Positions 1,120 to 21,375 are shown, numbered from the stretch's first letter. The stretch: 22,920 bases of DNA from a virus (IMGVR_UViG_2859777919_000008); one strand, 5' to 3'. Program-made: numbers and translations. The notes: generated from the sequence alone by a model not told the origin.

Positions 1120-1189
1120 TGGAGCACCTCAAAAACACCATCATACACTAAATCAGTAAGTTGGCAGCATCACCTCATTCGTCTGTTCC

Positions 1190-1696
1190 TTAAATCTTCC
1201 AGGAAATTTCTGCATTGCCGTCAGCATCACCGGCACCTGTGAATTCAGCGTTGGTCAGCACCACGTTTTTGCCACTGACTGACGTGGACATGAATCCACC
1301 CAGCGGCACTTTGATGGATTCATCAGTGGAGACGACAACGTATACCGGATCGCCTTTTTTGATAGTGCTGGCATCAAAATCAGAACCGAGATTAACGGTC
1401 ACGTAGCCACGCTTCATGGCGTCGCCCGGGAAGTTCTTGCCTGTTCCCACCTGGCGAACCATGTCCGGCTGCGACGTGGTCGGATAAGGGCGCACGTAGA
1501 TCCCCTTCACCTTGTCTGCGGTATCACCATCTGCCAGCGGCACGAAAAAACCGTCATCATCGTATTTACCAGCCAGGCCATAGGCAGCGAAGGCGTTATC
1601 GGATTTAAGGACCACCGGTTCGACGGTTAAGTCCTGCGGGCGAGAGACAGCCCCGGCAATGCCAACAGGCATCCGGTACAGAAATACATTATTCAT
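1190..1696 (-). CDS. phage head-associated structural protein (function uncertain)
   Basis: 168 aa ORF immediately downstream of the head gene cluster, 3 nt after the preceding gene; its stop lies 15 bp from the IS1 end. Assignment is by gene context only. Confidence 0.5.
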   Translation of the reverse strand: MNNVFLYRMPVGIAGAVSRPQDLTVEPVVLKSDNAFAAYGLAGKYDDDGFFVPLADGDTADKVKGIYVRPYPTTSQPDMVRQVGTGKNFPGDAMKRGYVTVNLGSDFDASTIKKGDPVYVVVSTDESIKVPLGGFMSTSVSGKNVVLTNAEFTGAGDADGNAEISWKI

Positions 1697-1699
1697 TTT

Positions 1700-2920
1700 T
1701 TACCCTTTACGGTTTGCCCAGAATTCAGCGTTTTGTTTGTTCAGGGAAGCGATACTGGTCATGCCCATGTTTAGGCGCTGTGCATCGCCGGTGGTGGCGC
1801 GGGTGTTTCGCCCTTTGGCAACCTCAGACACGGCATTAAACGCCATGTCGACCGATTGTTTCGGTAATTTGCGGATATCCGCATCACCGACTATCTGGCG
1901 AACCAGCGTTTTGTCAGCAGAAGCCAGAACCTCGCGTTTGAACGCGGTCGGTTTCATCTTACGGCTCAGATCGATACCCGGAACGATAACTTCGGCACGC
2001 CAGGCTGAGTCACCAGTAATCGTGGTTTCCTCTTCATCGTCCTCGCCGTCACCGGTCGGATTATCGTCAGGCTTATTATCGTTATCGCCCGTGGCATTTC
2101 TTTCCAGCTTAGCCAGCAGGGCTTTCAGTAATGTTTTGAGGTCATCATCACTGTCGCCGGTTGGATCTCCGCCCATCTCTGGTGCTTTGTCCGGTAGTGG
2201 TTGCTGCGGGGACAGGTTGATGTTGAGATTAACGCCCTGCGGCAAATCCCCCTCATCTCCTGTAACCGATGCGGGAGCCGACTCCACCAGTTCGTTCATG
2301 GTGTCGGCATCTCCTGTCTTGATGGCCGCACGCATGCGGTTCCACCAGTTTTTCTTTTGATTTGCCATTGTGTCTCTGTCTCCAATTGCACAACGATTTC
2401 CGGCTCTGCCTTTAGGGACAAGAGCCACATGGTTTCCGGTAATATCGACCTGCTCGGCTTTACCTGGCTCGGTCTGCTCGTACTCCGCGTCATAGCCGCA
2501 CGACACTTCGCGCAGGCCATCTTCGATAAGCTGAATGGCGCTTTCGTCTTTGACGATAAGGTCAGCCAGCATCAAATCAGACTGCTCACCCGTCCCGCGC
2601 CGGACATTCTGGAGGTGCCCGACAGCAAGCTCTTTCCAGTTCTCGGGATTTACCAGCCGCACATTCCCGTTTTCATCTTCAGGATGCAGGATCGTGATGC
2701 TCATCCCTTCGAATGAGGCAAGCGTGGCCGGATGGAATACCTGCTCAGGAGAACGCGTGACGACTATTTCACCGAACTTATCGGGTTTCAGTTTTGGCAG
2801 GTCATCAGCACCATAGAGCTGCTTACCTGTTCGTCCTATCGGCACGTCTTTGCACAGCAACGAGCCGTCAGCCAGGCGGTATCGGGTTTCCCCGAGCCTG
2901 GTCTCAAAAAAGTATTTCAT
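1700..2920 (-). CDS. phage head protein, scaffold/maturation-like, with acidic Gly/Asp-rich linker
   Basis: 406 aa ORF tightly packed after the head morphogenesis gene; contains a long acidic low-complexity linker (TGDSDDD...GDGEDDEEE) typical of scaffold-type head proteins. Exact family not resolved. Confidence 0.5.
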   Translation of the reverse strand: MKYFFETRLGETRYRLADGSLLCKDVPIGRTGKQLYGADDLPKLKPDKFGEIVVTRSPEQVFHPATLASFEGMSITILHPEDENGNVRLVNPENWKELAVGHLQNVRRGTGEQSDLMLADLIVKDESAIQLIEDGLREVSCGYDAEYEQTEPGKAEQVDITGNHVALVPKGRAGNRCAIGDRDTMANQKKNWWNRMRAAIKTGDADTMNELVESAPASVTGDEGDLPQGVNLNINLSPQQPLPDKAPEMGGDPTGDSDDDLKTLLKALLAKLERNATGDNDNKPDDNPTGDGEDDEEETTITGDSAWRAEVIVPGIDLSRKMKPTAFKREVLASADKTLVRQIVGDADIRKLPKQSVDMAFNAVSEVAKGRNTRATTGDAQRLNMGMTSIASLNKQNAEFWANRKG

Positions 2921-2923
2921 GGG

Positions 2924-3706
2924 TTATGCTGCCCTTTTCATTGCGAATGGAACGCGAACAAACACGATCTCTTTATAGCAGCGGCAGTTTGGCAGCTCGC
3001 CCGCGTGGCCGGTCATGCCGTCCAAAGTTGGAGGTGAATCCCAGCGGACGAATTTACCTTTCATGTGATCGTGGGAATCTCGGACATCGCCATCATCGGC
3101 TGTACGCCAAATATAACCATCCGAGCCAATAGCTATCGCTCGGGCCATATCCAGCGCGCCCGTTGCTCTTCCCAGTTCCGTTCGGGCAATCAGATCGGCC
3201 CTAGACTTAGCAACATCGCCGGTAGATGCAATCTCTTTAGCAAACTGCTCCGCCCGACCACCGGTGACAACAGCCTCTATCGCTTTGTTCTGGATGTCGT
3301 ACACCCTGTCTGCGGCCTCGAGAGGCAGAGATTTGATGTACTTGACCTGTTCGGCGATGATGGATTGCATCACCTGGCCCACAGGAGCGCTTTCCACAAG
3401 ATTGCGGAGCTCGCGACTGATGTTCTTGCTGTGTTGCCGCCAAACTTTCTCGTTCTGCCGGGTTAGGTCCGCAGTAAAGTTTTCCGCGACCTTTGTCGCC
3501 CAGGGGGTGATGATTTCACTGTAACGCTCCAGCGCCGCAATAATTTCCGTGATACTGTCATTTGAACCATCGTAGCGACCATTTACGATGTCTCCGACCG
3601 CCCTCGCTATCCTGCGTAGGCTGGTTCGATACCGGATTTCCGCCTGACGGCTCCTGCGGTTCGTCATCAGGTTCGCCGATGCCGGGCGGCGCTTCATCTT
3701 CGGCAT
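2924..3706 (-). CDS. phage head morphogenesis (minor head) protein, SPP1 gp7 / Mu F-like
   Basis: 260 aa ORF following the portal gene, family-like C-terminal region (...IWRTADDGDVRDSHDHMKGKF...LPNCRCY). The annotated start overlaps the portal 3-prime end by about 149 nt, so the true start is uncertain. Confidence 0.65.
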   Translation of the reverse strand: MPKMKRRPASANLMTNRRSRQAEIRYRTSLRRIARAVGDIVNGRYDGSNDSITEIIAALERYSEIITPWATKVAENFTADLTRQNEKVWRQHSKNISRELRNLVESAPVGQVMQSIIAEQVKYIKSLPLEAADRVYDIQNKAIEAVVTGGRAEQFAKEIASTGDVAKSRADLIARTELGRATGALDMARAIAIGSDGYIWRTADDGDVRDSHDHMKGKFVRWDSPPTLDGMTGHAGELPNCRCYKEIVFVRVPFAMKRAA

Positions 3707-5024
3707 TCTCGATGTCCTCGTCGGTAATGGATGCCCCGATGCCGGTTACGTCAGAATTTTCTCGCAAATCAGTCATAGCGGCTTTCAGTGTCATCAGACC
3801 ATCACCCAGCGCCGTACTGATTGCGTTGGTGGTGTTTAACGCCACCGTTGAGCGATCGACATCAGACATTTGCCAGAGCGGGTTAAACTCAAACGTGAAA
3901 TCGTCCGGCAGCGGCTTGCCAAGTTCCGAACGATGCATGATGTCCAGTATCCGCCGCACCGGAAGACGTAAACGCCTCTCCTGCAACGAACTGATGCGAT
4001 CGTAATAGTTGGCAAGGTCTGCATCACCGGTAGAAAATCCTTTCGGGGACTGTCCGAACAACCGCACCAGTGGGATACCAACAGCGCCACTAATCTGTTC
4101 TACAAACTGCGAAAGGATGTCATCCAGACCACTGAAGCTGTACTGATGGGTTTCAAACTTATCCCGCGAGTCCATGAGCGTCATGCCTTCATTACTCTGG
4201 AACTGTCGAATCAGGTCGATATTCTTCAGCAACGCTTCATACGCAGGACCACCAAGTGCGATAAGCTCGCGTAGCTTCTCCACGCTGTAGGTACGCAAAT
4301 GCGCCTTGTAGACCAGCTGCGCCGCGCCGACAGTAGCGCTGTCGAACGCGGTAAGACGATCCCAGATACGCTCTACAACCGACATTCCCCATTCGTTCTC
4401 GGTCATCTTCTGCTGAAATGGCAACGTGACGCCATCAAAGCGAATCAGGCGACTGTGATGAATGCGCCAGGCAGGAATTCCCGTTGCTGTGGTCACCACA
4501 TCGTAAAACTCAGGTTTACCCAGGTCCGGCCCCATATCTTTAATGCGGCGGGTCAGTGCCGGGTCGACCATCCAGCGGTCGAGCGGGAGAATCCCCTTAA
4601 ACTTGCCCTTACCGATGGTTTCGGGTCGCAGCGGGGTCATTGGTGCCTACCCCTCAATCATGATGAAACCCACCGCGCCGCCGTAGAGGCGCGACCATTT
4701 CAGCACGTCATTCAGCGCATCCCAGATTTGCAACTCATCCAGTTGTGATTCGAGAATGCCACGATCTTTTGCATCAATTTCCGAAGTGATGCGAATGCCT
4801 TTGCGGGTCATATCATCCGGGATAGCATCGACTGCTTCGCCGATGATCTAGGATGAACGATAGGACCATTCCACCAGCATGCGGTTACGACTGGTGAAAT
4901 TAGCCCGGTAGGTGGATGCTGAGTGCTGGTTAGGTGTCTGCATCCCTACGCGGGCAATAAAATTCTCATAACCATCAGCTGTGGCCTGCACAGTTCGCCG
5001 CAGGGCTTGTTTGTTTCGTGCCAT
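3558..5024 (-). pseudogene. phage portal protein with two in-frame amber (TAG) codons
   Basis: ATG at 5024-5022 overlaps the large terminase stop (TGATG). One continuous frame runs to the stop at 3558 (488 sense codons) and is broken only by TAG at codon 59 (plus-strand cta 4848-4850) and TAG at codon 126 (cta 4647-4649). The 360 aa ORF 3558-4640 is the C-terminal part; the N-terminal part reads MARNKQALRRTVQATADGYENF... Confidence 0.7.
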
Positions 5025-6454
5025 CAGGCCTGTCTCCCCAGCTGTTCCCAGATATCCAGCGATGTATCGATTGGCGCGAAGGCCATAATGAATGCATCAG
5101 CAACGTTTGGTGACGGTATCTCGCGTTTTGCGAGGTCTTTTTTACTTTCGACCATCACACGTCCGTTACGGTCGAAATCACGATGAGGTGTTGTCAGTTC
5201 CAGTTTCAGCTTTTCAAGCAACGGACAACGAGAATCTATGCTGATCAGCTCATCCACAGGATACTGTTCTCCGTTGTTAATGGCGTTAAACGTATTTCTG
5301 AAACGGTCAGCCACCAGCCACCATGCCTGAGCCTTAAGATTTGCGAAAAAGTCTTTGTTGGGGATGCCGTTGTACTCGTCATCTGGCTCATGCACACCAG
5401 CACCGGCGTTAAACCTCTGGTAATTCACACGTCGCGCGTATGCGTTCTCGCTCTTCCGGTCAGCGTTAATTTCAGAGAATTTAGCACCGGCAGACGCACC
5501 AACACCGATAGAGTCGTAAACAATATCTGCTTCACGCTCCAGCGCCGCCTGATAAGTACGCTGGCAGCTCTTCAGTAATTCATCTTCTTTGGCCTTCCAT
5601 TCGTCGGCCCAGAAAACAACGGATCCGTGACGGTAAACGTTAGCGCACTTATCTGTACCACTGTCAGCCACGTCAAAGCCAATACGCTTTCTTCCACTGG
5701 GTTCGAAATTTAACGTTTTGTGCGCATCCACTGCGGCTTCTATCCAAGACAGTTTGATGATTGCCGCATCATCATCAGACTCCGGAACGCCCTCATACAC
5801 ATGTTTAAAACCATCCGGATCACGGCGTCGCGCCGCGTCGATAACCTTAAGCATGGTGTCAGACAGAAACGGATTTTCGTCATAGTTAATTTTGCGGATG
5901 AGAGTGCCTTCGGGCGGATCAACAACGAAGTTGCGCCAGACGAAATCAGTAACAAGTCCGGGGTTGAATATGAACCAGCATTCCGAACCCTCTTTACGGA
6001 TCGTTGGCTCCAGAATTTTCCACTGGTATTCCGTCAGTGCGTGGGCTTCTTCCAGCCACAACACATCGATCCCCTCCAGTGACTTAATTTCTTCGATGTT
6101 GCGCCATAATCCATAAAAAACAAATTCCGAGCCAGTAACCCGGTTAATGATTTTGTTGTTCAGAATACGGAAACGGTGCCGCAGACCAAACCTGTCTATC
6201 TGAATTTTGAGCAGGGTATACACCGACTCTTCGATTTTATTCTGGATCTGACGGGCACAACAAAAACGCAGGGTGTATTTATTCGACAGAAATATGGCAA
6301 TGCCAGCGGCATCCCATGATTTTGACGATGACCGACCACCATAAAGCACTTTGTTACGTGCCCGCATAGTCCAGAAACTACGTAAAGCCGGATTCAGCGT
6401 CGGTTTGGATGTCAGAGTAGAAGTCATTGAGGTCACGCTCTCCATTGCCATCAT
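5024..6454 (-). CDS. phage terminase large subunit
   Basis: ORF 5024-6535 carries a Walker A-like motif (YGGRSSSKSW) followed by a nuclease-type C-terminal region. A likely start near the internal Met cluster (MMAME, about 6454) overlaps the terS 3-prime end; start codon uncertain. Confidence 0.8.
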   Translation of the reverse strand: MMAMESVTSMTSTLTSKPTLNPALRSFWTMRARNKVLYGGRSSSKSWDAAGIAIFLSNKYTLRFCCARQIQNKIEESVYTLLKIQIDRFGLRHRFRILNNKIINRVTGSEFVFYGLWRNIEEIKSLEGIDVLWLEEAHALTEYQWKILEPTIRKEGSECWFIFNPGLVTDFVWRNFVVDPPEGTLIRKINYDENPFLSDTMLKVIDAARRRDPDGFKHVYEGVPESDDDAAIIKLSWIEAAVDAHKTLNFEPSGRKRIGFDVADSGTDKCANVYRHGSVVFWADEWKAKEDELLKSCQRTYQAALEREADIVYDSIGVGASAGAKFSEINADRKSENAYARRVNYQRFNAGAGVHEPDDEYNGIPNKDFFANLKAQAWWLVADRFRNTFNAINNGEQYPVDELISIDSRCPLLEKLKLELTTPHRDFDRNGRVMVESKKDLAKREIPSPNVADAFIMAFAPIDTSLDIWEQLGRQA

Positions 6455-7142
6455 CAATACCTGCATCACGGCGAAGACGATCAGCCTCCAGAGACACCTT
6501 ATCAGTGGCGGCCTTGCGGTAGGCTGTATCAGCAAATATTTTTCCTACCGTCGCAAGCGTGCCAACGATGGACTCAATACGAACTGTATTGCGCATCATT
6601 GCTTTCTCGGCGGCGCTGATATTTTCAATCAGCATCTTCCTTTCCTGGTCCCCATTAGCATCTTCCAGCGACACCAACCACCGACCAATATTCTCTGCAG
6701 CGACAAGGTTGTTAGCACGAAGGCGAAATAATTCGTCCTCGAGCGTCAACGCTTTAGCGTCCTCTATCACCTCATCTTTGAGCAGAAGGCGACGGGCATA
6801 ACCACCGTGTTTTAATGCCTGCTGGTTACCGGGTTGGAATGGGTTAGTCGGGGGATCGGTACGCATTCCGCGTATCGGTTTCGTATCCGGTGTAGATTCT
6901 GTTTTTAGTTGCGTACTTTTTTGTGTAAGGCCAGTAATGGCAGGCTTTCTGCTGGTACGCACTTTCCTTTTTTGCGTACCATTTTTGCAAACCTGCGTAC
7001 CGCCACTGCGTGCCCAACCAAGCTTTTTGGCCCTCTTCCTGATAGCCCCTTCTGTAACGCCGTATTTCTCGCCTATATCACGGAGGCTAAGGACTCCGGC
7101 CCGGTATGCCGATTCGATGGCCTCCCAGTCCGGTTTTGCCAT
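6378..7142 (-). CDS. phage terminase small subunit (HTH DNA-binding)
   Basis: 254 aa ORF directly upstream of and overlapping terL; N-terminal HTH-like segment (LSLRDIGEKYGVTEGAIRKRAKK). Confidence 0.7.
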   Translation of the reverse strand: MAKPDWEAIESAYRAGVLSLRDIGEKYGVTEGAIRKRAKKLGWARSGGTQVCKNGTQKRKVRTSRKPAITGLTQKSTQLKTESTPDTKPIRGMRTDPPTNPFQPGNQQALKHGGYARRLLLKDEVIEDAKALTLEDELFRLRANNLVAAENIGRWLVSLEDANGDQERKMLIENISAAEKAMMRNTVRIESIVGTLATVGKIFADTAYRKAATDKVSLEADRLRRDAGIDDGNGERDLNDFYSDIQTDAESGFT

Positions 7143-7336
7143 GATTATGCTTCCTGTGATTTACTGTTATCGCTGCCTGTCACAATAGGTTGCTTTAATT
7201 CTTCCTCATCACTCACTCCTGCGACGCTCCGTGGCAGGGCCCCCCACAGGAGTACCTTGTAAATGTAAGGTGTTTAAGCCTAAATTAAGTCGTATCACGG
7301 TTAAATAGCAAAGAAAAATTCACAGAAGGAAAGACA

Positions 7337-7849
7337 TTGATGGAGTGGATAAATGCTTTGATGAACTATTTTGTACTTCATCCATATCGCCTATGGGGGC
7401 TTCTTTTTATAATAGCGTTCACAAAATCCACTTTACTCATTTCGGCGATATTGCCACCAGCATCAATTATGATGGCCACTGTAATTACAGTCAGCAAGAC
7501 GACTCTTTCACCATGGGAAGCTGGAATCACGGTCATGAGTGGCGCATGGTGCGGTACTATCGTTAATTACCATCTTGGTATAATAATTGGGCATATCCCT
7601 CAACTTGCATGTATAATATCAAGCCGTTCCAATACAATAGAACGGGTTCGCCTTCAGTTGCAAAATAACTCTGTGTCAATACTTTTCACTTCGCGCTTTA
7701 TCGCCGTGCTGCGTTATATTGCTCCTTTGGTGGCAGGAATGTTGCAACTTCATCCAGTGAAAGTGTATACAGTGAGTCTGATTTCAGCTGCTAGCTGGTC
7801 AGCACTTTATGTTGGTAGTTTTAGCTTCGTGTTGCCTTTTTTTAGCTAA
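7337..7849 (+). CDS. DedA-family (VTT/SNARE-associated domain) inner membrane protein
   Basis: 170 aa hydrophobic ORF, AT-rich codon usage, opposite strand to the flanking phage genes. Motifs ILPPASIMMATV and SRFIAVLRYIAPLVAGM resemble DedA signatures (compare E. coli YqjA GRFIAFVRTLLPTIAG). Confidence 0.5.
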   Translation: MMEWINALMNYFVLHPYRLWGLLFIIAFTKSTLLISAILPPASIMMATVITVSKTTLSPWEAGITVMSGAWCGTIVNYHLGIIIGHIPQLACIISSRSNTIERVRLQLQNNSVSILFTSRFIAVLRYIAPLVAGMLQLHPVKVYTVSLISAASWSALYVGSFSFVLPFFS

Positions 7850-7937
7850 ACTGCCCATAAAAAGCTCTTGCGAATCCAGCTTCCCCCATTCCTCTGACAA
7901 CAGAATCTGATTTGAAGGATAATGAGTAAAATTACCG

Positions 7938-8408
7938 CTACCCCCCAAGGCATTGGATCCTGATGTACTCCTGAAGCATTCTCAATGCTGTCTGGTCGCT
8001 GATGATTCCGTCCCGGATACCGAGAACGTTTCGTCCAGCAACTGGAGAGAGTTCGACGGTGGCATCATTGCCCATGCCGGAGGCGCTGGAGGTTTCGGCT
8101 GAGGATGGCACAGGGCATTTTCCTTTGACGAGCACCCGACCACCATTATCAAGCTTGCGCCGAAGAGCATCATTTTCAGCTTTCGCATCAGCTAACTCCT
8201 TCGTGTATTTAGCATCGAGTGCATCAGCATCACGCTGGCGCTGCTGCATGTCAGTAATGGTTGCGTTCGCCAGCTTCAGTTCTCTTGCGTTTTTGTCGCG
8301 CTGCTCTTTGTAGGTAATGGCGTTATCACGGTAATGATTAACAGCCCATGACAGGCGGACGATGATGCAGATAACCAGAGCGGAGATAATCGCGGTGACT
8401 CTGCTCAT
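7938..8408 (-). CDS. Rz-like i-spanin (lysis)
   Basis: ORF 7938-8420; probable start [17 protein letters not shown]... at 8408 overlapping the endolysin stop. N-terminal TM segment plus coiled-coil region as in lambda Rz. Confidence 0.75.
7982..8188 (-). CDS. Rz1-like o-spanin lipoprotein, embedded in Rz
   Basis: ORF in an alternative frame wholly inside Rz: [22 protein letters not shown]... with lipobox (VVGC) and proline-rich region ([16 protein letters not shown]), the lambda Rz1 architecture. Exact start uncertain. Confidence 0.7.
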
Positions 8409-8902
8409 TGCTGCCCCCACAAACAGACTTCACGCTCAATCTCACGACGGGTCATCAGCCCTTTCCATTGCTTACCGCCAGCATATGTCCAGCGACATAG
8501 CTGGTCACATGCGCCTTTGATATAGCCCTGGTTTATTTTGCGAAGAAGCGTCGATGTTCTGAAATTGCCAGCGCCCACGTTGTAAACGAACGAGTAAAGA
8601 GCGCCGCGCGTTGTTTCCGGTATATCGACTTTGATGTACGGGTTAATTTGTCTGGCGACAGTGGCAAGGTCTTTATTCAGGAGAGCTTTGCATTCTGCTT
8701 CGGTATACGTTTTACCAGGCATGATGTCTTTTCCGGTGTGTCCGTGACATACAGTCCATACACCAATGATATCTTTGTATAGTATGTAGCTGACACCTTC
8801 CAGACCATCGTTACCACCTGGGCCAGTGATTAACACAGATGCTATAGCAACAGCCCCGCCACCAATAGCAACTGCAACAGCCTTGCGTAATGATGGCGAC
8901 AT
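8405..8902 (-). CDS. phage endolysin, lambda R / lysozyme family
   Basis: 165 aa [42 protein letters not shown]...[21 protein letters not shown], closely resembling lambdoid prophage lysozymes (RrrD/RrrQ type) with an N-terminal signal-anchor-like segment. Confidence 0.9.
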
Positions 8903-9015
8903 TATTCACCTCTCGCAGCCTTACTAGACTGGCCCCCTGAATCTCCAGACAACCAGTATCACTTAAATAAGTGATAGTCTTAATACTAGTTTTTAGACTA
9001 GTCATTGGAGTACAG

Positions 9016-9381
9016 ATGATTGATGTCTTAGGGCCGGAGAAACGCAGACGGCGTACCACACAGGAAAAGATCGCAATTGTTCAGCAGAGCTTTGAACCGG
9101 GGATGACGGTCTCCCTCGTTGCCCGGCAACATGGTGTAGCAGCCAGCCAGTTATTTCTCTGGCGTAAGCAATACCAGGAAGGAAGTCTTACTGCTGTCGC
9201 CGCCGGAGAACAGGTTGTTCCTGCCTCTGAACTTGCTGCCGCCATGAAGCAGATTAAAGAACTCCAGCGCCTGCTCGGCAAGAAAACGATGGAAAATGAA
9301 CTCCTCAAAGAAGCCGTTGAATATGGACGGGCAAAAAAGTGGATAGCGCACGCGCCCTTATTGCCCGGGGATGGGGAGTAA
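9016..9381 (+). CDS. insC: IS2 InsC (OrfA)
   Basis: [56 protein letters not shown]..., recognisable as IS2 OrfA; the ORF track starts 15 codons earlier. Confidence 0.9.
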
Positions 9382-10244
9382 GCTTAGTCAGCCGTTGTCT
9401 CCGGGTGTCGCGTGCGCAGTTGCACGTCATTCTCAGACGAACCGATGACTGGATGGATGGCCGCCGCAGTCGTCACACTGATGATACGGATGTGCTTCTC
9501 CGTATACACCATGTTATCGGAGAGCTGCCCACGTATGGTTATCGTCGGGTATGGGCGCTGCTTCGCAGACAGGCAGAACTTGATGGTATGCCTGCGATCA
9601 ATGCCAAACGTGTTTACCGGATCATGCGCCAGAATGCGCTGTTGCTTGAGCGAAAACCTGCTGTACCGCCATCGAAACGGGCACATACAGGCAGAGTGGC
9701 CGTGAAAGAAAGCAATCAGCGATGGTGCTCTGACGGGTTCGAGTTCTGCTGTGATAACGGAGAGAGACTGCGTGTCACGTTCGCGCTGGACTGCTGTGAT
9801 CGTGAGGCACTGCACTGGGCGGTGACTACCGGCGGCTTCAACAGTGAAACAGTACAGGACGTCATGCTGGGAGCGGTGGAACGCCGCTTCGGCAACGATC
9901 TTCCGTCGTCTCCAGTGGAGTGGCTGACGGATAATGGTTCATGCTACCGGGCTAATGAAACACGCCAGTTCGCCCGGATGTTGGGACTTGAACCGAAGAA
10001 CACGGCGGTGCGGAGTCCGGAGAGTAACGGAATAGCAGAGAGCTTCGTGAAAACGATAAAGCGTGACTACATCAGTATCATGCCCAAACCAGACGGGTTA
10101 ACGGCAGCAAAGAACCTTGCAGAGGCGTTCGAGCATTATAACGAATGGCATCCGCATAGTGCGCTGGGTTATCGCTCGCCACGGGAATATCTGCGGCAGC
10201 GGGCTTGTAATGGGTTAAGTGATAACAGATGTCTGGAAATATAG
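9339..10244 (+). CDS. insD: IS2 InsD (OrfB, DDE transposase domain)
   Basis: 301 aa ORF overlapping insC in the -1 frame, recognisable as IS2 OrfB. Confidence 0.9.
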
Positions 10245-18023: not shown

Positions 18024-18770
18024 ATGAAAAATATTGCGACAGGCGGCGTTCTGGAACGCATCCGCCGACTGACCCCGCCACATGTAACCGCCCCATTCAG
18101 AACGGTAGCGGAGTGGCGCGAGTGGCAACTTGCTGAAGGCCAGAAACGTAGCGAGGAGATCAACCGCCTGAATCGCCAGTTGCGGGTGGAAAAAATTCTG
18201 AATCGCTCAGGCATCCAGCCGTTGCACCGTAAATGCTCGTTTGCGAATTACCAGGTGCAGAACGACGGCCAGCGATACGCGTTAAGCCAGGCGAAATCCA
18301 TCGCCGATGAACTGATGACCGGGTGTACAAATTTTGCGTTCAGCGGAAAACCTGGTACCGGGAAGAATCACTTAGCGGCAGCTATCGGGAATCGCCTGCT
18401 GAAAGACGGTCAGACAGTGATTGTGGTTACCGTGGCTGATGTTATGAGCGCCCTGCACGCCAGCTATGACGACGGGCAGTCAGGCGAAAAATTTTTGCGG
18501 GAGCTGTGCGAAGTGGATCTGCTGGTTCTTGATGAAATTGGCATTCAGCGCGAGACGAAAAACGAGCAGGTGGTGCTGCACCAGATTGTTGATCGCCGGA
18601 CAGCGTCGATGCGCAGCGTGGGGATGCTGACAAACCTGAACTATGAGGTGATGAAAACATTGCTCGGCGAGCGGGTGATGGATCGCATGGTCATGAACGG
18701 CGGGCGCTGGGTGAATTTTAACTGGGAGAGCTGGCGTCCGAATGTTAGCCATTCGAGGGTTGTTAAGTAG
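18024..18770 (+). CDS. dnaC: DnaC-like replicative helicase loader (AAA+)
   Basis: 248 aa; ...SFANYQVQNDGQRYALSQAKS...NFAFSGKPGTGKNHLAAAIGNRLL...VDLLVLDEIGIQ...IVDRR...MLTNLNYEVMKTLLGERVMDRM... aligns along its length with E. coli DnaC (Walker A GKPGTGKNHLA, Walker B LLVLDE). Confidence 0.9.
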   Translation: MKNIATGGVLERIRRLTPPHVTAPFRTVAEWREWQLAEGQKRSEEINRLNRQLRVEKILNRSGIQPLHRKCSFANYQVQNDGQRYALSQAKSIADELMTGCTNFAFSGKPGTGKNHLAAAIGNRLLKDGQTVIVVTVADVMSALHASYDDGQSGEKFLRELCEVDLLVLDEIGIQRETKNEQVVLHQIVDRRTASMRSVGMLTNLNYEVMKTLLGERVMDRMVMNGGRWVNFNWESWRPNVSHSRVVK

Positions 18771-18784
18771 TTTCAGGAGGATTT

Positions 18785-19207
18785 ATGGCGAAACCTTTTA
18801 CTCCCGAACAGCGGGAAGAACTGAAGACGCGAATTGTGGAACTCGTGCATCAGGACGGTCGGGTCACGATTCGGCAGTTGTCAGATGAAACAGGTATCAG
18901 TCGTGCGTCTGTCGGTCGCTTATGCATAGAACTGGTCGCAAGTGGTGATGTATATAATTCTGGCTACGGCTTATTCCCGTCTGAACAGGCTCGCAAGGAC
19001 TGGCAAAGCGCCCGCAAAAAACTCTCGAGAGTAAAGGTGAGGAAACCGGTTGTTGTTGATCCGGACCTTATCTGGTCATTACCTGACGGAGAAATACGCC
19101 GCTACGACAGGCGCCTGAATATAATCTGTCGCGAGTGCCGGAAGAGCGAAGCTATGCAGCGTGTACTGGCTTTCTATCAGGGTAATTTTCAGGAGGCGAT
19201 ACTGTGA
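18785..19207 (+). CDS. hypothetical prophage protein with predicted winged-helix DNA-binding N-terminus
   Basis: 140 aa ORF with good coding character; N-terminal HTH-like segment (VTIRQLSDETGISRASVGRLCIELVASGDV). Confidence 0.45.
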   Translation: MAKPFTPEQREELKTRIVELVHQDGRVTIRQLSDETGISRASVGRLCIELVASGDVYNSGYGLFPSEQARKDWQSARKKLSRVKVRKPVVVDPDLIWSLPDGEIRRYDRRLNIICRECRKSEAMQRVLAFYQGNFQEAIL

Positions 19208-19264
19208 ATGAAATTAGCTATCAGGCTTCAATTACCGCTGGCATTCGCATCAAAGGAGAGGAGC

Positions 19265-19621
19265 ATGGAAATAAAACCAGAAGATGAGTTAAGCAATATC
19301 GTTTTATTTCCGGTAAAAGAGGATGACCCTCGTAATCAGGTTAATTTTCTTTATGAGCCATCGGAAAGACCATATTGCCATCACGCCTCTGTACGGGTTG
19401 ACGAAAAAGAGCGTCAGGTCCGCTGTAAAATCTGCGGTGCGGTTGTGGAGCCGTTTGACTGGATGCTCTCTGTGGCAAAAAGAGAAACCAGACTGGCAGA
19501 TGATGTAAGGCTATTGCGCCAGGAGGAACAGGAAAGGCGGAGAAATATAGAAAAGCTGATACAGATTGAGCGTAACGCGAAAGCGCGGATACGCAGGGCG
19601 ACAAAATCCAGAACTGAATAA
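19265..19621 (+). CDS. hypothetical prophage protein with zinc-ribbon-like Cys/His motif
   Basis: ORF 19208-19621; the internal start at 19265 (MEIKPEDEL...) has a strong SD (aaaggagaggagc). Contains CHH...CKIC and a basic/coiled C-terminus. Confidence 0.45.
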   Translation: MEIKPEDELSNIVLFPVKEDDPRNQVNFLYEPSERPYCHHASVRVDEKERQVRCKICGAVVEPFDWMLSVAKRETRLADDVRLLRQEEQERRRNIEKLIQIERNAKARIRRATKSRTE

Positions 19622-19768
19622 TTAAATTTAGCACTGTTAAAAATTTAATCCTTAACCGGAGGGATTTCTGCACCCTCAAATCATCAGGAGACCACCCGAA
19701 AGGGCGGGGAGCAGTCACACATCTGTTTCCGATAGCCCCGTTCTAATGCTACACTCTTTGATATTTTT

Positions 19769-20455
19769 ATGACCCCAATAAACATATTTATGACAGTTGC
19801 TGATTTCAAACGGCCCAAATTGGAGCTCCCAAACGGGGCAAACAAACTACTACTGCACTCTTGCTGTGCTCCATGTTCCGGTGAGGTGATGGAGGCGCTT
19901 CAGGCCTCGGGAATCGACTACACCATCTTTTTCTACAACCCGAACATTCATCCTCAGAAAGAGTATTTAATTCGTAAGGATGAGAATATTCGCTTTGCTG
20001 AACAACACGGCGTGCCGTTTATTGATGCTGATTACGACACAGACAACTGGTTTGAACGAGCCAAAGGAATGGAATGGGAGCCCGAACGAGGGATCCGTTG
20101 CACCATGTGTTTTGACATGCGTTTTGAGCGGACAGCGCTGTACGCCGCTGAAAATGGTTTCAGTGTGATCAGCAGTTCACTGGGCATTTCACGCTGGAAA
20201 AATATGCAGCAGGTTAACGACTGTGGGCGGCGAGCCGTCGCGCATTATCCGGGCATGGTGTACTGGGATTATAACTGGCGCAAGCAGGGCGGCTCGTCCC
20301 GTATGATTGAAATCAGCAAGCGCGAAAAATTCTATCAGCAGGAATATTGTGGCTGTGTGTATTCTCTGCGCGATACCAATCTACACCGCAAATCTCAGGG
20401 ACGCCCTCTTATCAAAATTGGTCAACTCCACTACGGTAAAGAAGAGAAGGAGTGA
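19769..20455 (+). CDS. queH: QueH-like epoxyqueuosine reductase (DUF208 family, Fe-S)
   Basis: 228 aa; family-like motifs [38 protein letters not shown] and [11 protein letters not shown] (QueH cluster-binding Cys signature). Start may be the internal Met at 19790. Confidence 0.7.
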
Positions 20456-20476
20456 TTTTATGGGGCACCTTTCTGA

Positions 20477-20506
20477 TTGATTTCATATTGGCGAGGTAAG
20501 TAGAAT
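20477..20506 (+). promoter_or_regulatory. putative sigma70 promoter of the hok mRNA
   Basis: -35 ttgatt (20477-20482), 18-bp spacer, -10 tagaat (20501-20506); the predicted start about 20511-20513 coincides with the 5-prime element that pairs with the mRNA 3-prime end. Confidence 0.4.
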
Positions 20507-20682
20507 GACTGCGGGTGCTTGAGGCTATCTGCTTCAGGCATGAACACCAAAAGGCAGATAGAGAAAAGCCCCAGTTAACATTACGCGTCCGGCAAGACGC
20601 TTAACATTAATCTGAGGCCAATTTCATGCTTTGCACATGTAGGTTAGCCTCTTACATGCCGAAAGGCAAGGAGAAGCAGGCT

Positions 20683-20838
20683 ATGAAGCAGCAAAAGGCG
20701 ATGTTAATCGCCCTGATCGTCATCTGTTTAACCGTCATAGTGACGGCACTGGTAACGAGGAAAGACCTCTGTGAGGTACGAATCCGAACCGGCCAGACGG
20801 AGGTCGCTGTCTTCGTAGACTACGAATCCAGGAAGTAA
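20683..20838 (+). CDS. hok: Hok/Gef-family type I toxin (membrane-depolarising peptide)
   Basis: MKQQKAMLIALIVICLTVIVTALVTRKDLCEVRIRTGQTEVAVFVDYESRK (51 aa) is nearly identical over most of its length to E. coli HokD/RelF and HokC/Gef; the ORF track starts 19 codons earlier in the same frame. Confidence 0.85.
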   Translation: MKQQKAMLIALIVICLTVIVTALVTRKDLCEVRIRTGQTEVAVFVDYESRK

Positions 20839-20915
20839 GAGTGACCGGGCGGGGAGCTGATCCCATCCCCGCCCACCTCTGATGTGTCAGGCATCCTCAA
20901 CGCACCCGCACTTAA

Positions 20916-20958
20916 CCCGCCCATCGCTGTGATCTCTCAGCGTTTCGGCGGGTTTTTT
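20916..20958 (+). terminator. rho-independent terminator of the hok transcript
   Basis: Stem cccgcc (20916-20921) / ggcggg (20947-20952) enclosing an inner hairpin cgctg/cagcg, followed by tttttt (20953-20958). Confidence 0.5.
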
Positions 20959-21087
20959 GTTGTTTATTTCCGGTGAATTTGATTCGCGCACCTTCGCAGA
21001 TAGAATCGACTCACTTAAGTAGCGCGCAGGGAGAAGAGGGATGGACCCCGAACAGGGGAGAGCTATTTATCTGGAAGGATTCTGAAG

Positions 21088-21375
21088 ATGAAAATCGAAG
21101 AATTGCGTGAAATTTTTAGTGAAAATGGCCTCTATGCTGTGCGCGTTGAGAATGGAGCGATTGTCAGCCATTGCCGCATTAGATGTTTGCAATCTCAACA
21201 AAGGAAGAGCGGTGCTGTGTTATTTTATTTTTGTAATGGACTTCTGACGGACGGTTTTATTTTGCGTGAGGACGAATTTGTCACATCATTACGGGTTTTG
21301 AAAGAGATTGGTTTTAAGGCTGGTTTTCTGCTTTTGCTGAAGAATAAACTCATCTACAATCTTGAGCAGGATTGA
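21088..21375 (+). CDS. hypothetical small prophage protein
   Basis: 95 aa ORF, AT-rich, overlapping the next ORF start by 4 nt (atga); no recognisable motif. Confidence 0.35.
   Translation: MKIEELREIFSENGLYAVRVENGAIVSHCRIRCLQSQQRKSGAVLFYFCNGLLTDGFILREDEFVTSLRVLKEIGFKAGFLLLLKNKLIYNLEQD

Follow-up and report, generated by a model that had tools for sequence, protein, structure and literature searches.

A probable QueH-type epoxyqueuosine reductase gene carried as a cargo cassette by lambdoid prophages of Escherichia coli and Shigella

The queH locus in a decayed lambdoid prophage

The stretch of DNA analysed here (hereafter the window, 22,920 nucleotides) is a decayed lambdoid prophage, rearranged beyond viability. 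E. coli FDAARGOS_944 has an intact version of this prophage, with 99.4-100% identity to the window in the segments common to both. Relative to it, the late-gene block at 1175-8924 is inverted, and an IS2-like element (about 8925-10255) and an IS110-family element (about 10464-11912) have been inserted. Two and a half copies of an element annotated as IS600 in E. coli genomes were also found: a partial copy at 13693-14405, a minus-strand copy at 16076-17341 in the O-like replication gene, located by self-BLAST and the FDAARGOS_944 comparison, and a copy from 21720 to the window end, which cuts the DUF1367 gene downstream of queH. Because of the IS600 at 16076-17341, the early-right operon is severed upstream of queH. 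An IMG/VR contig with the identical IS arrangement showed 99.985% identity to the window. A protein exactly matching the queH product is encoded by Shigella sonnei Ss046 (AAZ87471.1), and at least 1000 contigs carry it. From the IS pattern and the exact protein match, the host of the prophage was apparently S. sonnei.

Three genes on the plus strand precede queH: a DnaC/IstB-like ATPase gene (18024-18770), a DUF977 gene (18785-19207; Pfam DUF977, E = 1e-33) and an ORF of 137 aa (19208-19621). The latter two (18785-19621) belong to the early-right operon and lie directly upstream of queH. On the other side, a hok/sok type I toxin-antitoxin locus was identified on the plus strand at 20513-20838 (Rfam RF01794, 117 bits; Pfam HOK_GEF, E = 1e-22), with the mok/hok ORF at 20626-20838. 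The gene is thus placed between replication genes and hok, as the earlier note on this DNA had described. The 137-aa ORF occurs in only some queH prophages; a zinc ribbon of the TFIIB type matched it weakly and below the threshold (E = 2e-4), and it matched none of the PADLOC families.

An uninterrupted ORF of 228 aa runs from 19769 to 20455 on the plus strand, and its first ATG had previously been taken as the start of the gene. The ATG at 19790 (Met8) is kept in all chromosomal homologues, from which the ATG at 19769 is absent; the latter is also missing in 1 of 86 prophage copies. Codons 2-6 hold 5 of the 13 variable amino-acid positions among the prophage alleles, and RefSeq WP_012421537.1 begins at the position equivalent to 19790. 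On these three lines of evidence (start-codon conservation, variability of codons 2-6 and the RefSeq start), the true start codon is most likely 19790 and the protein is likely a 221-aa product. The queH coding sequence is accordingly placed at 19790-20455 on the plus strand (221 aa plus stop), in agreement with the PF02677, 7lc5 and Foldseek matches described below, and the seven-codon in-frame extension at 19769-19789 is probably a 5' leader rather than coding sequence. No Shine-Dalgarno sequence was found before either the ATG at 19769 or that at 19790.

Membership of the QueH family

The PF02677 (QueH) profile matched the ORF product over profile positions 1-174 of 175 with a score of 220.6 bits (E = 1.9e-65), where the curated cut-off lies at 23.5. 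T. maritima QueH, which provides the only solved relatives, matched the protein at E = 5e-22 (7lc5). All three motifs quoted in the earlier note as cysteine motifs of the DUF208/QueH family are present in the 228-aa ORF: the first cysteine motif (CCAPC) within residues 27-37, CTMCFDMR at residues 111-118 and YCGCVYS at residues 193-199. Proper alignment showed that six cysteines, numbered on the 228-aa ORF, are common to the protein and the crystallised T. maritima enzyme, and that every shared cysteine is kept. In the CCAPC motif (codons 19862-19876, plus strand), Cys32 and Cys33 align with T. maritima Cys9 and Cys10, and Cys36 aligns with Asp13; Cys111 and Cys114 of the CxxC motif (20099-20110, plus strand) align with the cysteines of CERC, and Cys194 and Cys196 of the CGC motif (20348-20356, plus strand) with those of YCGC. 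Each of the six common cysteines and Cys36 is found in at least 118 of the 120 closest homologues: Cys32, Cys33 and Cys36 are invariant, and Cys111 and Cys114, like Cys194 and Cys196, are kept in 119 and 120 of 120. All are also present in five homologues at 31-49% identity. According to Li et al. 2021, the cysteines of CCAP[C/D], CxxC and CGC reportedly bind a [4Fe-4S] cluster and an adjacent iron.

The residue aligned with Cys36 (19874-19876), T. maritima Asp13, is the one mutated in PDB 9DCO. The exchange was considered as a sign of a divergent active site and rejected, as cysteine is the state in every other member examined, namely in 120 of 120 close homologues and in the five distant relatives at 31-49% identity, one of which, filed under the label Staphylococcus phage, is apparently a Staphylococcus enzyme. 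CCAPC is thus the form usual in the family, T. maritima QueH being the atypical member at this position beside the metal site, and the cysteine of the prophage protein is the common state rather than a feature special to the phage copy.

An AlphaFold model of the protein (pLDDT 77, pTM 0.79) was compared with solved structures by Foldseek. The top five matches were all T. maritima QueH, with the queuosine complex 9deu among them (E about 1e-12, TM score of 0.84 as normalised to the target, rmsd 2.6 Å), and the next matches were adenine nucleotide alpha-hydrolase-like enzymes with TM scores below 0.5. The profile search and the structural modelling against a QueH structure, which the earlier note had proposed as checks, both support the assignment to QueH. 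When 37 sequences, chromosomal QueH proteins among them, were aligned, about 100 columns proved invariant; the protein from the window has the expected residue in each and so gives no sign of altered function. The chromosomal QueH proteins of other Enterobacterales also have the same length and the same C-terminal tail as the prophage protein.

Profile, residues and fold together support the assignment of the ORF product to the QueH family (DUF208, PF02677, COG1636; structures 7LC5, 7LC7 and 9DEU), with which it shares the full-length profile, the predicted fold and the cysteines, and its enzymatic identity as an epoxyqueuosine reductase is very likely. It differs from known QueH in its setting, as here the gene is a lone piece of prophage cargo, and its hosts possess QueG already. 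The name QueH is in use for the protein in RefSeq and UniRef, and the PGAP label 'epoxyqueuosine reductase QueH' is found in all E. coli records among the matches listed. A scan of the protein encoded at 19790-20452 with NCBIfam release 20 returned zero family matches, although about 1000 genomes have it as QueH in their PGAP annotation; the RefSeq name rests on something other than an HMM of that release.

Distribution, cassette structure and selection

Among 5426 complete E. coli genomes, 995 (about 18%) carry queH at 93-100% nucleotide identity. At least 80% of the gene is covered in 985 of these 995 copies, and about 99% are full length at the DNA level. queG was present in 5426 of 5426 genomes and hence beside every queH. 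When a 1.5-kb queH-hok segment was used as query, 4750 genomes were matched, mostly over the hok part, with queH in 995 only. The gene was also found in E. albertii, in S. flexneri, in 188 IMG/VR viral contigs and, at the same place, in one isolated lambdoid phage, HannyBb. The DUF977 gene precedes queH in nearly all of the 84 prophage-type loci, and hok follows in most. At least three prophage backbones and integration sites are involved, including a prophage beside ybhA, a Rac-type prophage at ttcA and an O157:H7 lambdoid prophage.

The prior statement that enterobacteria normally use QueG holds for E. coli, in which queG is universal, but it does not extend to many other Enterobacterales, which have a chromosomal QueH. 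The prophage protein shares 78-92% identity with proteins named QueH that are encoded on the chromosomes of Enterobacter, Kluyvera, Erwinia, Serratia, Proteus, Providencia and Photorhabdus. The closest non-prophage relatives are those of Enterobacter, Scandinavium and Kluyvera (86-92% protein and about 77-85% nucleotide identity), followed by those of Erwinia, Serratia, Proteus, Providencia and others at 77-87%. These chromosomal genes have no prophage neighbours; of the two loci inspected, both lie amid ordinary chromosomal genes, one of them beside an integrase fragment. In a neighbour-joining tree, all prophage copies group together within the Enterobacteriaceae, with Scandinavium and E. 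hormaechei as sister lineage. This single clade points to one capture from a chromosomal queH.

The extent of the transferred segment can be read from its mosaic boundaries. Similarity between the window and phage vB_EcoS-640R1, a related phage, ends at 19707 and resumes at 20494, and the phage has 1.1 kb of small, unrelated ORFs between these points. Other queH prophages and Enterobacter hormaechei match from 19719 or 19726 to about 20461. From these boundaries, the cargo cassette (19708-20493) consists of queH with about 45-80 nt upstream and less than 40 nt downstream. A promoter-like site was noted at 20477-20506, at the right-hand edge of the cassette and before hok/sok.

In lambdoid prophages, the cargo carried behind the DUF977 gene varies, and the slot is a hot spot for such genes. 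In an O157:H7 prophage (Z1832; locus L172, 20872-22882), queH is followed by a type II restriction-modification pair of the NgoMIV type, and in a Rac-type prophage (locus L171, 21286-21624) it is followed by a DUF1971 gene. In vB_EcoS-640R1 (locus L169, 3309-4400), three small ORFs occupy the slot instead of queH, so that queH is seen as a discrete insertion between conserved phage genes. The morons found between the replication genes and Q in lambdoid phages, such as hok/sok and restriction-modification genes, are likewise cassettes that are present or absent between conserved flanks. lom- and bor-type genes are further examples of lambdoid accessory cargo. queH shares with morons the variable-cargo slot, and it has a promoter-like element of its own. 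It differs from them in that no terminator was found and in that its product belongs to the housekeeping enzymes of tRNA modification, where morons encode surface, toxin or defence proteins.

The promoter-like element is an extended -10-like sequence, TGcTACACT, on the plus strand at 19747-19755, 43 nt before the conserved ATG, and a role in transcription is predicted for it. The sequence TGCTACACT was found, identical, at -43 in 85 of 86 prophage copies; the exception is one divergent Rac-type copy with TGCTACACA, which is without the final T of the -10 hexamer. The nearest chromosomal relatives, in Enterobacter, Scandinavium, Kluyvera and one Erwinia, have TGCTACA[AC]T at -40 to -44, and the sequence flanking this element does not align between the prophage and chromosomal genes. 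Such conservation suggests that queH may have been captured together with its native promoter. A scan of 19100-21100 for a two-hexamer consensus gave three promoter-like sites against 2.3 expected; TGcTACACT was not flagged, and none of the three explains queH expression. No terminator-like site was found in 19100-21100, nor was a recognisable -35 element found near TGcTACACT.

The queH gene is intact in 84 of 84 prophage copies, which comprise 21 nucleotide alleles and 8 protein variants. The Nei-Gojobori dN/dS among the prophage alleles was 0.047, with dS up to 0.31, in a non-random sample of the 80 closest IMG/VR matches and a few genomes that is biased to close relatives of the query. Third codon positions account for 47 of the 61 segregating sites. 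Judged from these alleles, queH appears to be under strong purifying selection, the signature of a working protein. The gene is retained across several prophage backbones and also in cryptic remnants such as the prophage in the window.

Proposed function and alternative explanations

Enzymes of the QueH family convert epoxyqueuosine (oQ) into queuosine (Q) at position 34 of the four tRNAs that have GUN anticodons, those for Asp, Asn, His and Tyr. De novo synthesis of B12 is beyond both E. coli and Shigella, and Frey et al. reported in 1988 that E. coli depends on cobamide supply to form Q. The other genes of the pathway, queA, tgt and queC-F, are carried by E. coli K-12. The resident enzyme QueG (YjeS), which depends on a [4Fe-4S] cluster as well, needs cobalamin (PMC4646009, PMC5175355), and QueH is a cobamide-independent alternative to it (PMC6461909). 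The two proteins are unrelated in sequence and fold, and they differ in the requirement for cobalamin, but the predicted reaction, oQ34 to Q34, is the same, and both are present together in all queH-positive E. coli.

It is likely that the gene encodes a genuine QueH-type reductase that was captured once, is carried as a cargo cassette and would convert oQ to Q in host tRNA independently of cobalamin. According to this model, queH and about 45-60 nt upstream of it, including the extended -10-type element, would have left an Enterobacteriaceae chromosome in a single event and would then have spread as a stand-alone cassette in the DUF977-hok/sok slot among prophages of E. coli, Shigella and E. 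albertii. A lysogen or an infected cell could then complete Q synthesis without cobalamin by means of QueH. Since all E. coli have the B12-dependent QueG and make no B12 de novo, B12-free Q synthesis is the likeliest effect of the gene. QueH may act in the lysogen, from its own promoter, during lytic growth, as part of the early-right operon, or in both; in the window, with the operon interrupted by IS600, transcription would have to come from the gene's own promoter. The suggestion in the earlier note that queH is a moron acting on host tRNA fits the cassette in a variable slot, the promoter-like element and the purifying selection, with the reductase activity predicted from the family.

A physiological benefit of queH beside QueG is a conjecture, as we know of no physiological difference between oQ and Q. 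A further-reaching proposal, which we regard as tentative and rather doubtful, is that prophage queH is a lysogenic-conversion gene that uncouples Q maturation from B12 in gut E. coli and Shigella, in which case its strong conservation beside an ever-present QueG would signify that oQ and Q are not equivalent in translation. If this were true, cells with queH would, under cobalamin shortage, decode NAU and NAC codons differently, with consequences for fitness or for the expression of virulence genes. In Shigella, Q status has been linked to VirF through tgt/vacC. A gene that is carried by temperate phages, occurs in about 18% of complete E. coli genomes beside a universal queG and appears to be under strong purifying selection makes these prophages a natural experiment on whether oQ and Q differ functionally, and on whether B12 limitation constrains tRNA modification in the gut.

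The alternative that survives best, although we consider it improbable, is that queH is a helper of the lytic cycle only, which would be unexpressed in the lysogen and, after induction, transcribed along with the replication genes from the early-right promoter, so as to complete Q on the host tRNAs used in making phage proteins. queH lies on the strand and in the operon of the O-like, DnaC-like and DUF977 genes, with no terminator-like site between them, and HannyBb, an isolated and presumably viable lambdoid phage, keeps queH at the same place. In the window, however, the operon is cut by IS600 and the prophage is beyond viability, yet its queH is identical to that of an intact prophage. The cassette also brings a conserved promoter-like element common to chromosomal queH, and the retention of the gene in many cryptic prophages fits a host-side benefit better than a role restricted to lytic growth. 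A purely lytic role can be seen as a possible variant of the main explanation, cobalamin-independent Q synthesis in host tRNA.

Whether queH is a neutral passenger of a recombination-prone slot, without effect on phage or host and perhaps unexpressed, bears on the same data. Such a reading would agree with the constant presence of queG in the host, with the failure to find a ribosome-binding site or a consensus promoter for queH, and with the neighbouring prophage genes in the window, which are likewise intact. The dN/dS of 0.047 at a dS of up to 0.31, the intactness of 84 of 84 copies, the full length of about 99% of the 995 E. coli copies at the DNA level and the maintenance of the gene on at least three backbones and integration sites all argue against it, and we regard it as quite unlikely.

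We give even less credence to the idea that the enzyme has been repurposed for conflict, in that conversion of oQ to Q would alter the susceptibility of tRNAs with GUN anticodons to anticodon nucleases of the colicin E5 type. The circumstantial point in its favour, the sharing of the slot with toxin-antitoxin and restriction-modification cargo, is set against three observations: the QueH protein gave zero family matches in PADLOC at E up to 0.01, it departs from housekeeping QueH at none of the invariant positions, and no conserved partner gene lies beside queH.

Phages do use preQ0-derived bases in their DNA (PMC6884629), and the cargo slot also hosts conflict genes such as hok/sok and a type II restriction-modification system. 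The phage 7-deazaguanine clusters, which likewise draw on the queuosine and deazapurine enzyme repertoire, combine DpdA with FolE, QueD, QueE, QueC and others (Hutinet et al. 2019, PMC6884629); they contain a transglycosylase and preQ0 genes and are without QueA, QueG or QueH (PMC6884629), whereas QueH stands alone here. The earlier note had proposed a survey of related prophages for co-occurring tgt and queC/D/E genes, and none were found: a tblastn search with E. coli QueA, Tgt and QueC-G against 1.27 Mb, comprising 87 queH-bearing loci and the window, gave a best E value of 0.26, although a very divergent DpdA could escape the E. coli Tgt query. No Q-pathway gene is annotated in the four prophages and phages inspected. 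To our knowledge, oQ, the epoxide substrate, is made only on tRNA, by QueA. A part for QueH in a phage nucleic-acid modification strategy, whether a DNA 7-deazaguanine pathway or the modification of a nucleic acid other than tRNA, is therefore left with no support from the 1.27 Mb, in which no homologue of Tgt, QueA or QueC-G was detected at E below 0.1, and is the least credible reading of all.

The window contains no tRNA genes, its sole Rfam match being sok, and so offers no phage tRNAs with GUN anticodons for QueH to serve. The intact prophage version (locus L001, 23645-23955) carries a cluster of tRNA-Ile, -Arg, -Thr and -Gly genes, none of them for queuosine-bearing tRNAs; the window lacks these genes.

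The enzyme family, its chemistry and the name of the protein are already public; the phage context is new with respect to the literature searched. In the literature searched, the family under its several names (QueH, DUF208, COG1636) and epoxyqueuosine are mentioned with phages or prophages only incidentally, the phage context is not described, and no report of activity, expression or phenotype of a prophage QueH was found. The genes specific to queuosine maturation on tRNA, queA, queG and queH, are treated there as absent from viruses, and a 2019 survey of phage deazaguanine genes states that viruses yielded no homologues of QueA, QueG or QueH (PMC6884629). The protein is contained in PHROG 3217 ('unknown function'), whose model matches it from residue 41 (residues 41-228, 19889-20452). 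The model begins after the first cysteine motif, so that many phage annotations use an internal Met and lose CCAPC; in phage HannyBb, queH is annotated as 'hypothetical protein'. The present analysis thus exposes an annotation gap, a family of 'unknown function' whose first metal-binding motif is missed, which probably hid QueH from earlier virus surveys. Two kinds of apparent phage carriers were set aside. 'Bacteriophage sp.' faecal contigs with QueH matches are unverified and were not counted as phage QueH. 'Acinetobacter phage MD-2021a' (CAKLQH020000001.1, 328 kb) was rejected as a mislabelled bacterial chromosome: its queH, 78% identical to the window protein, is surrounded by soxR, dadA and type VI secretion genes.
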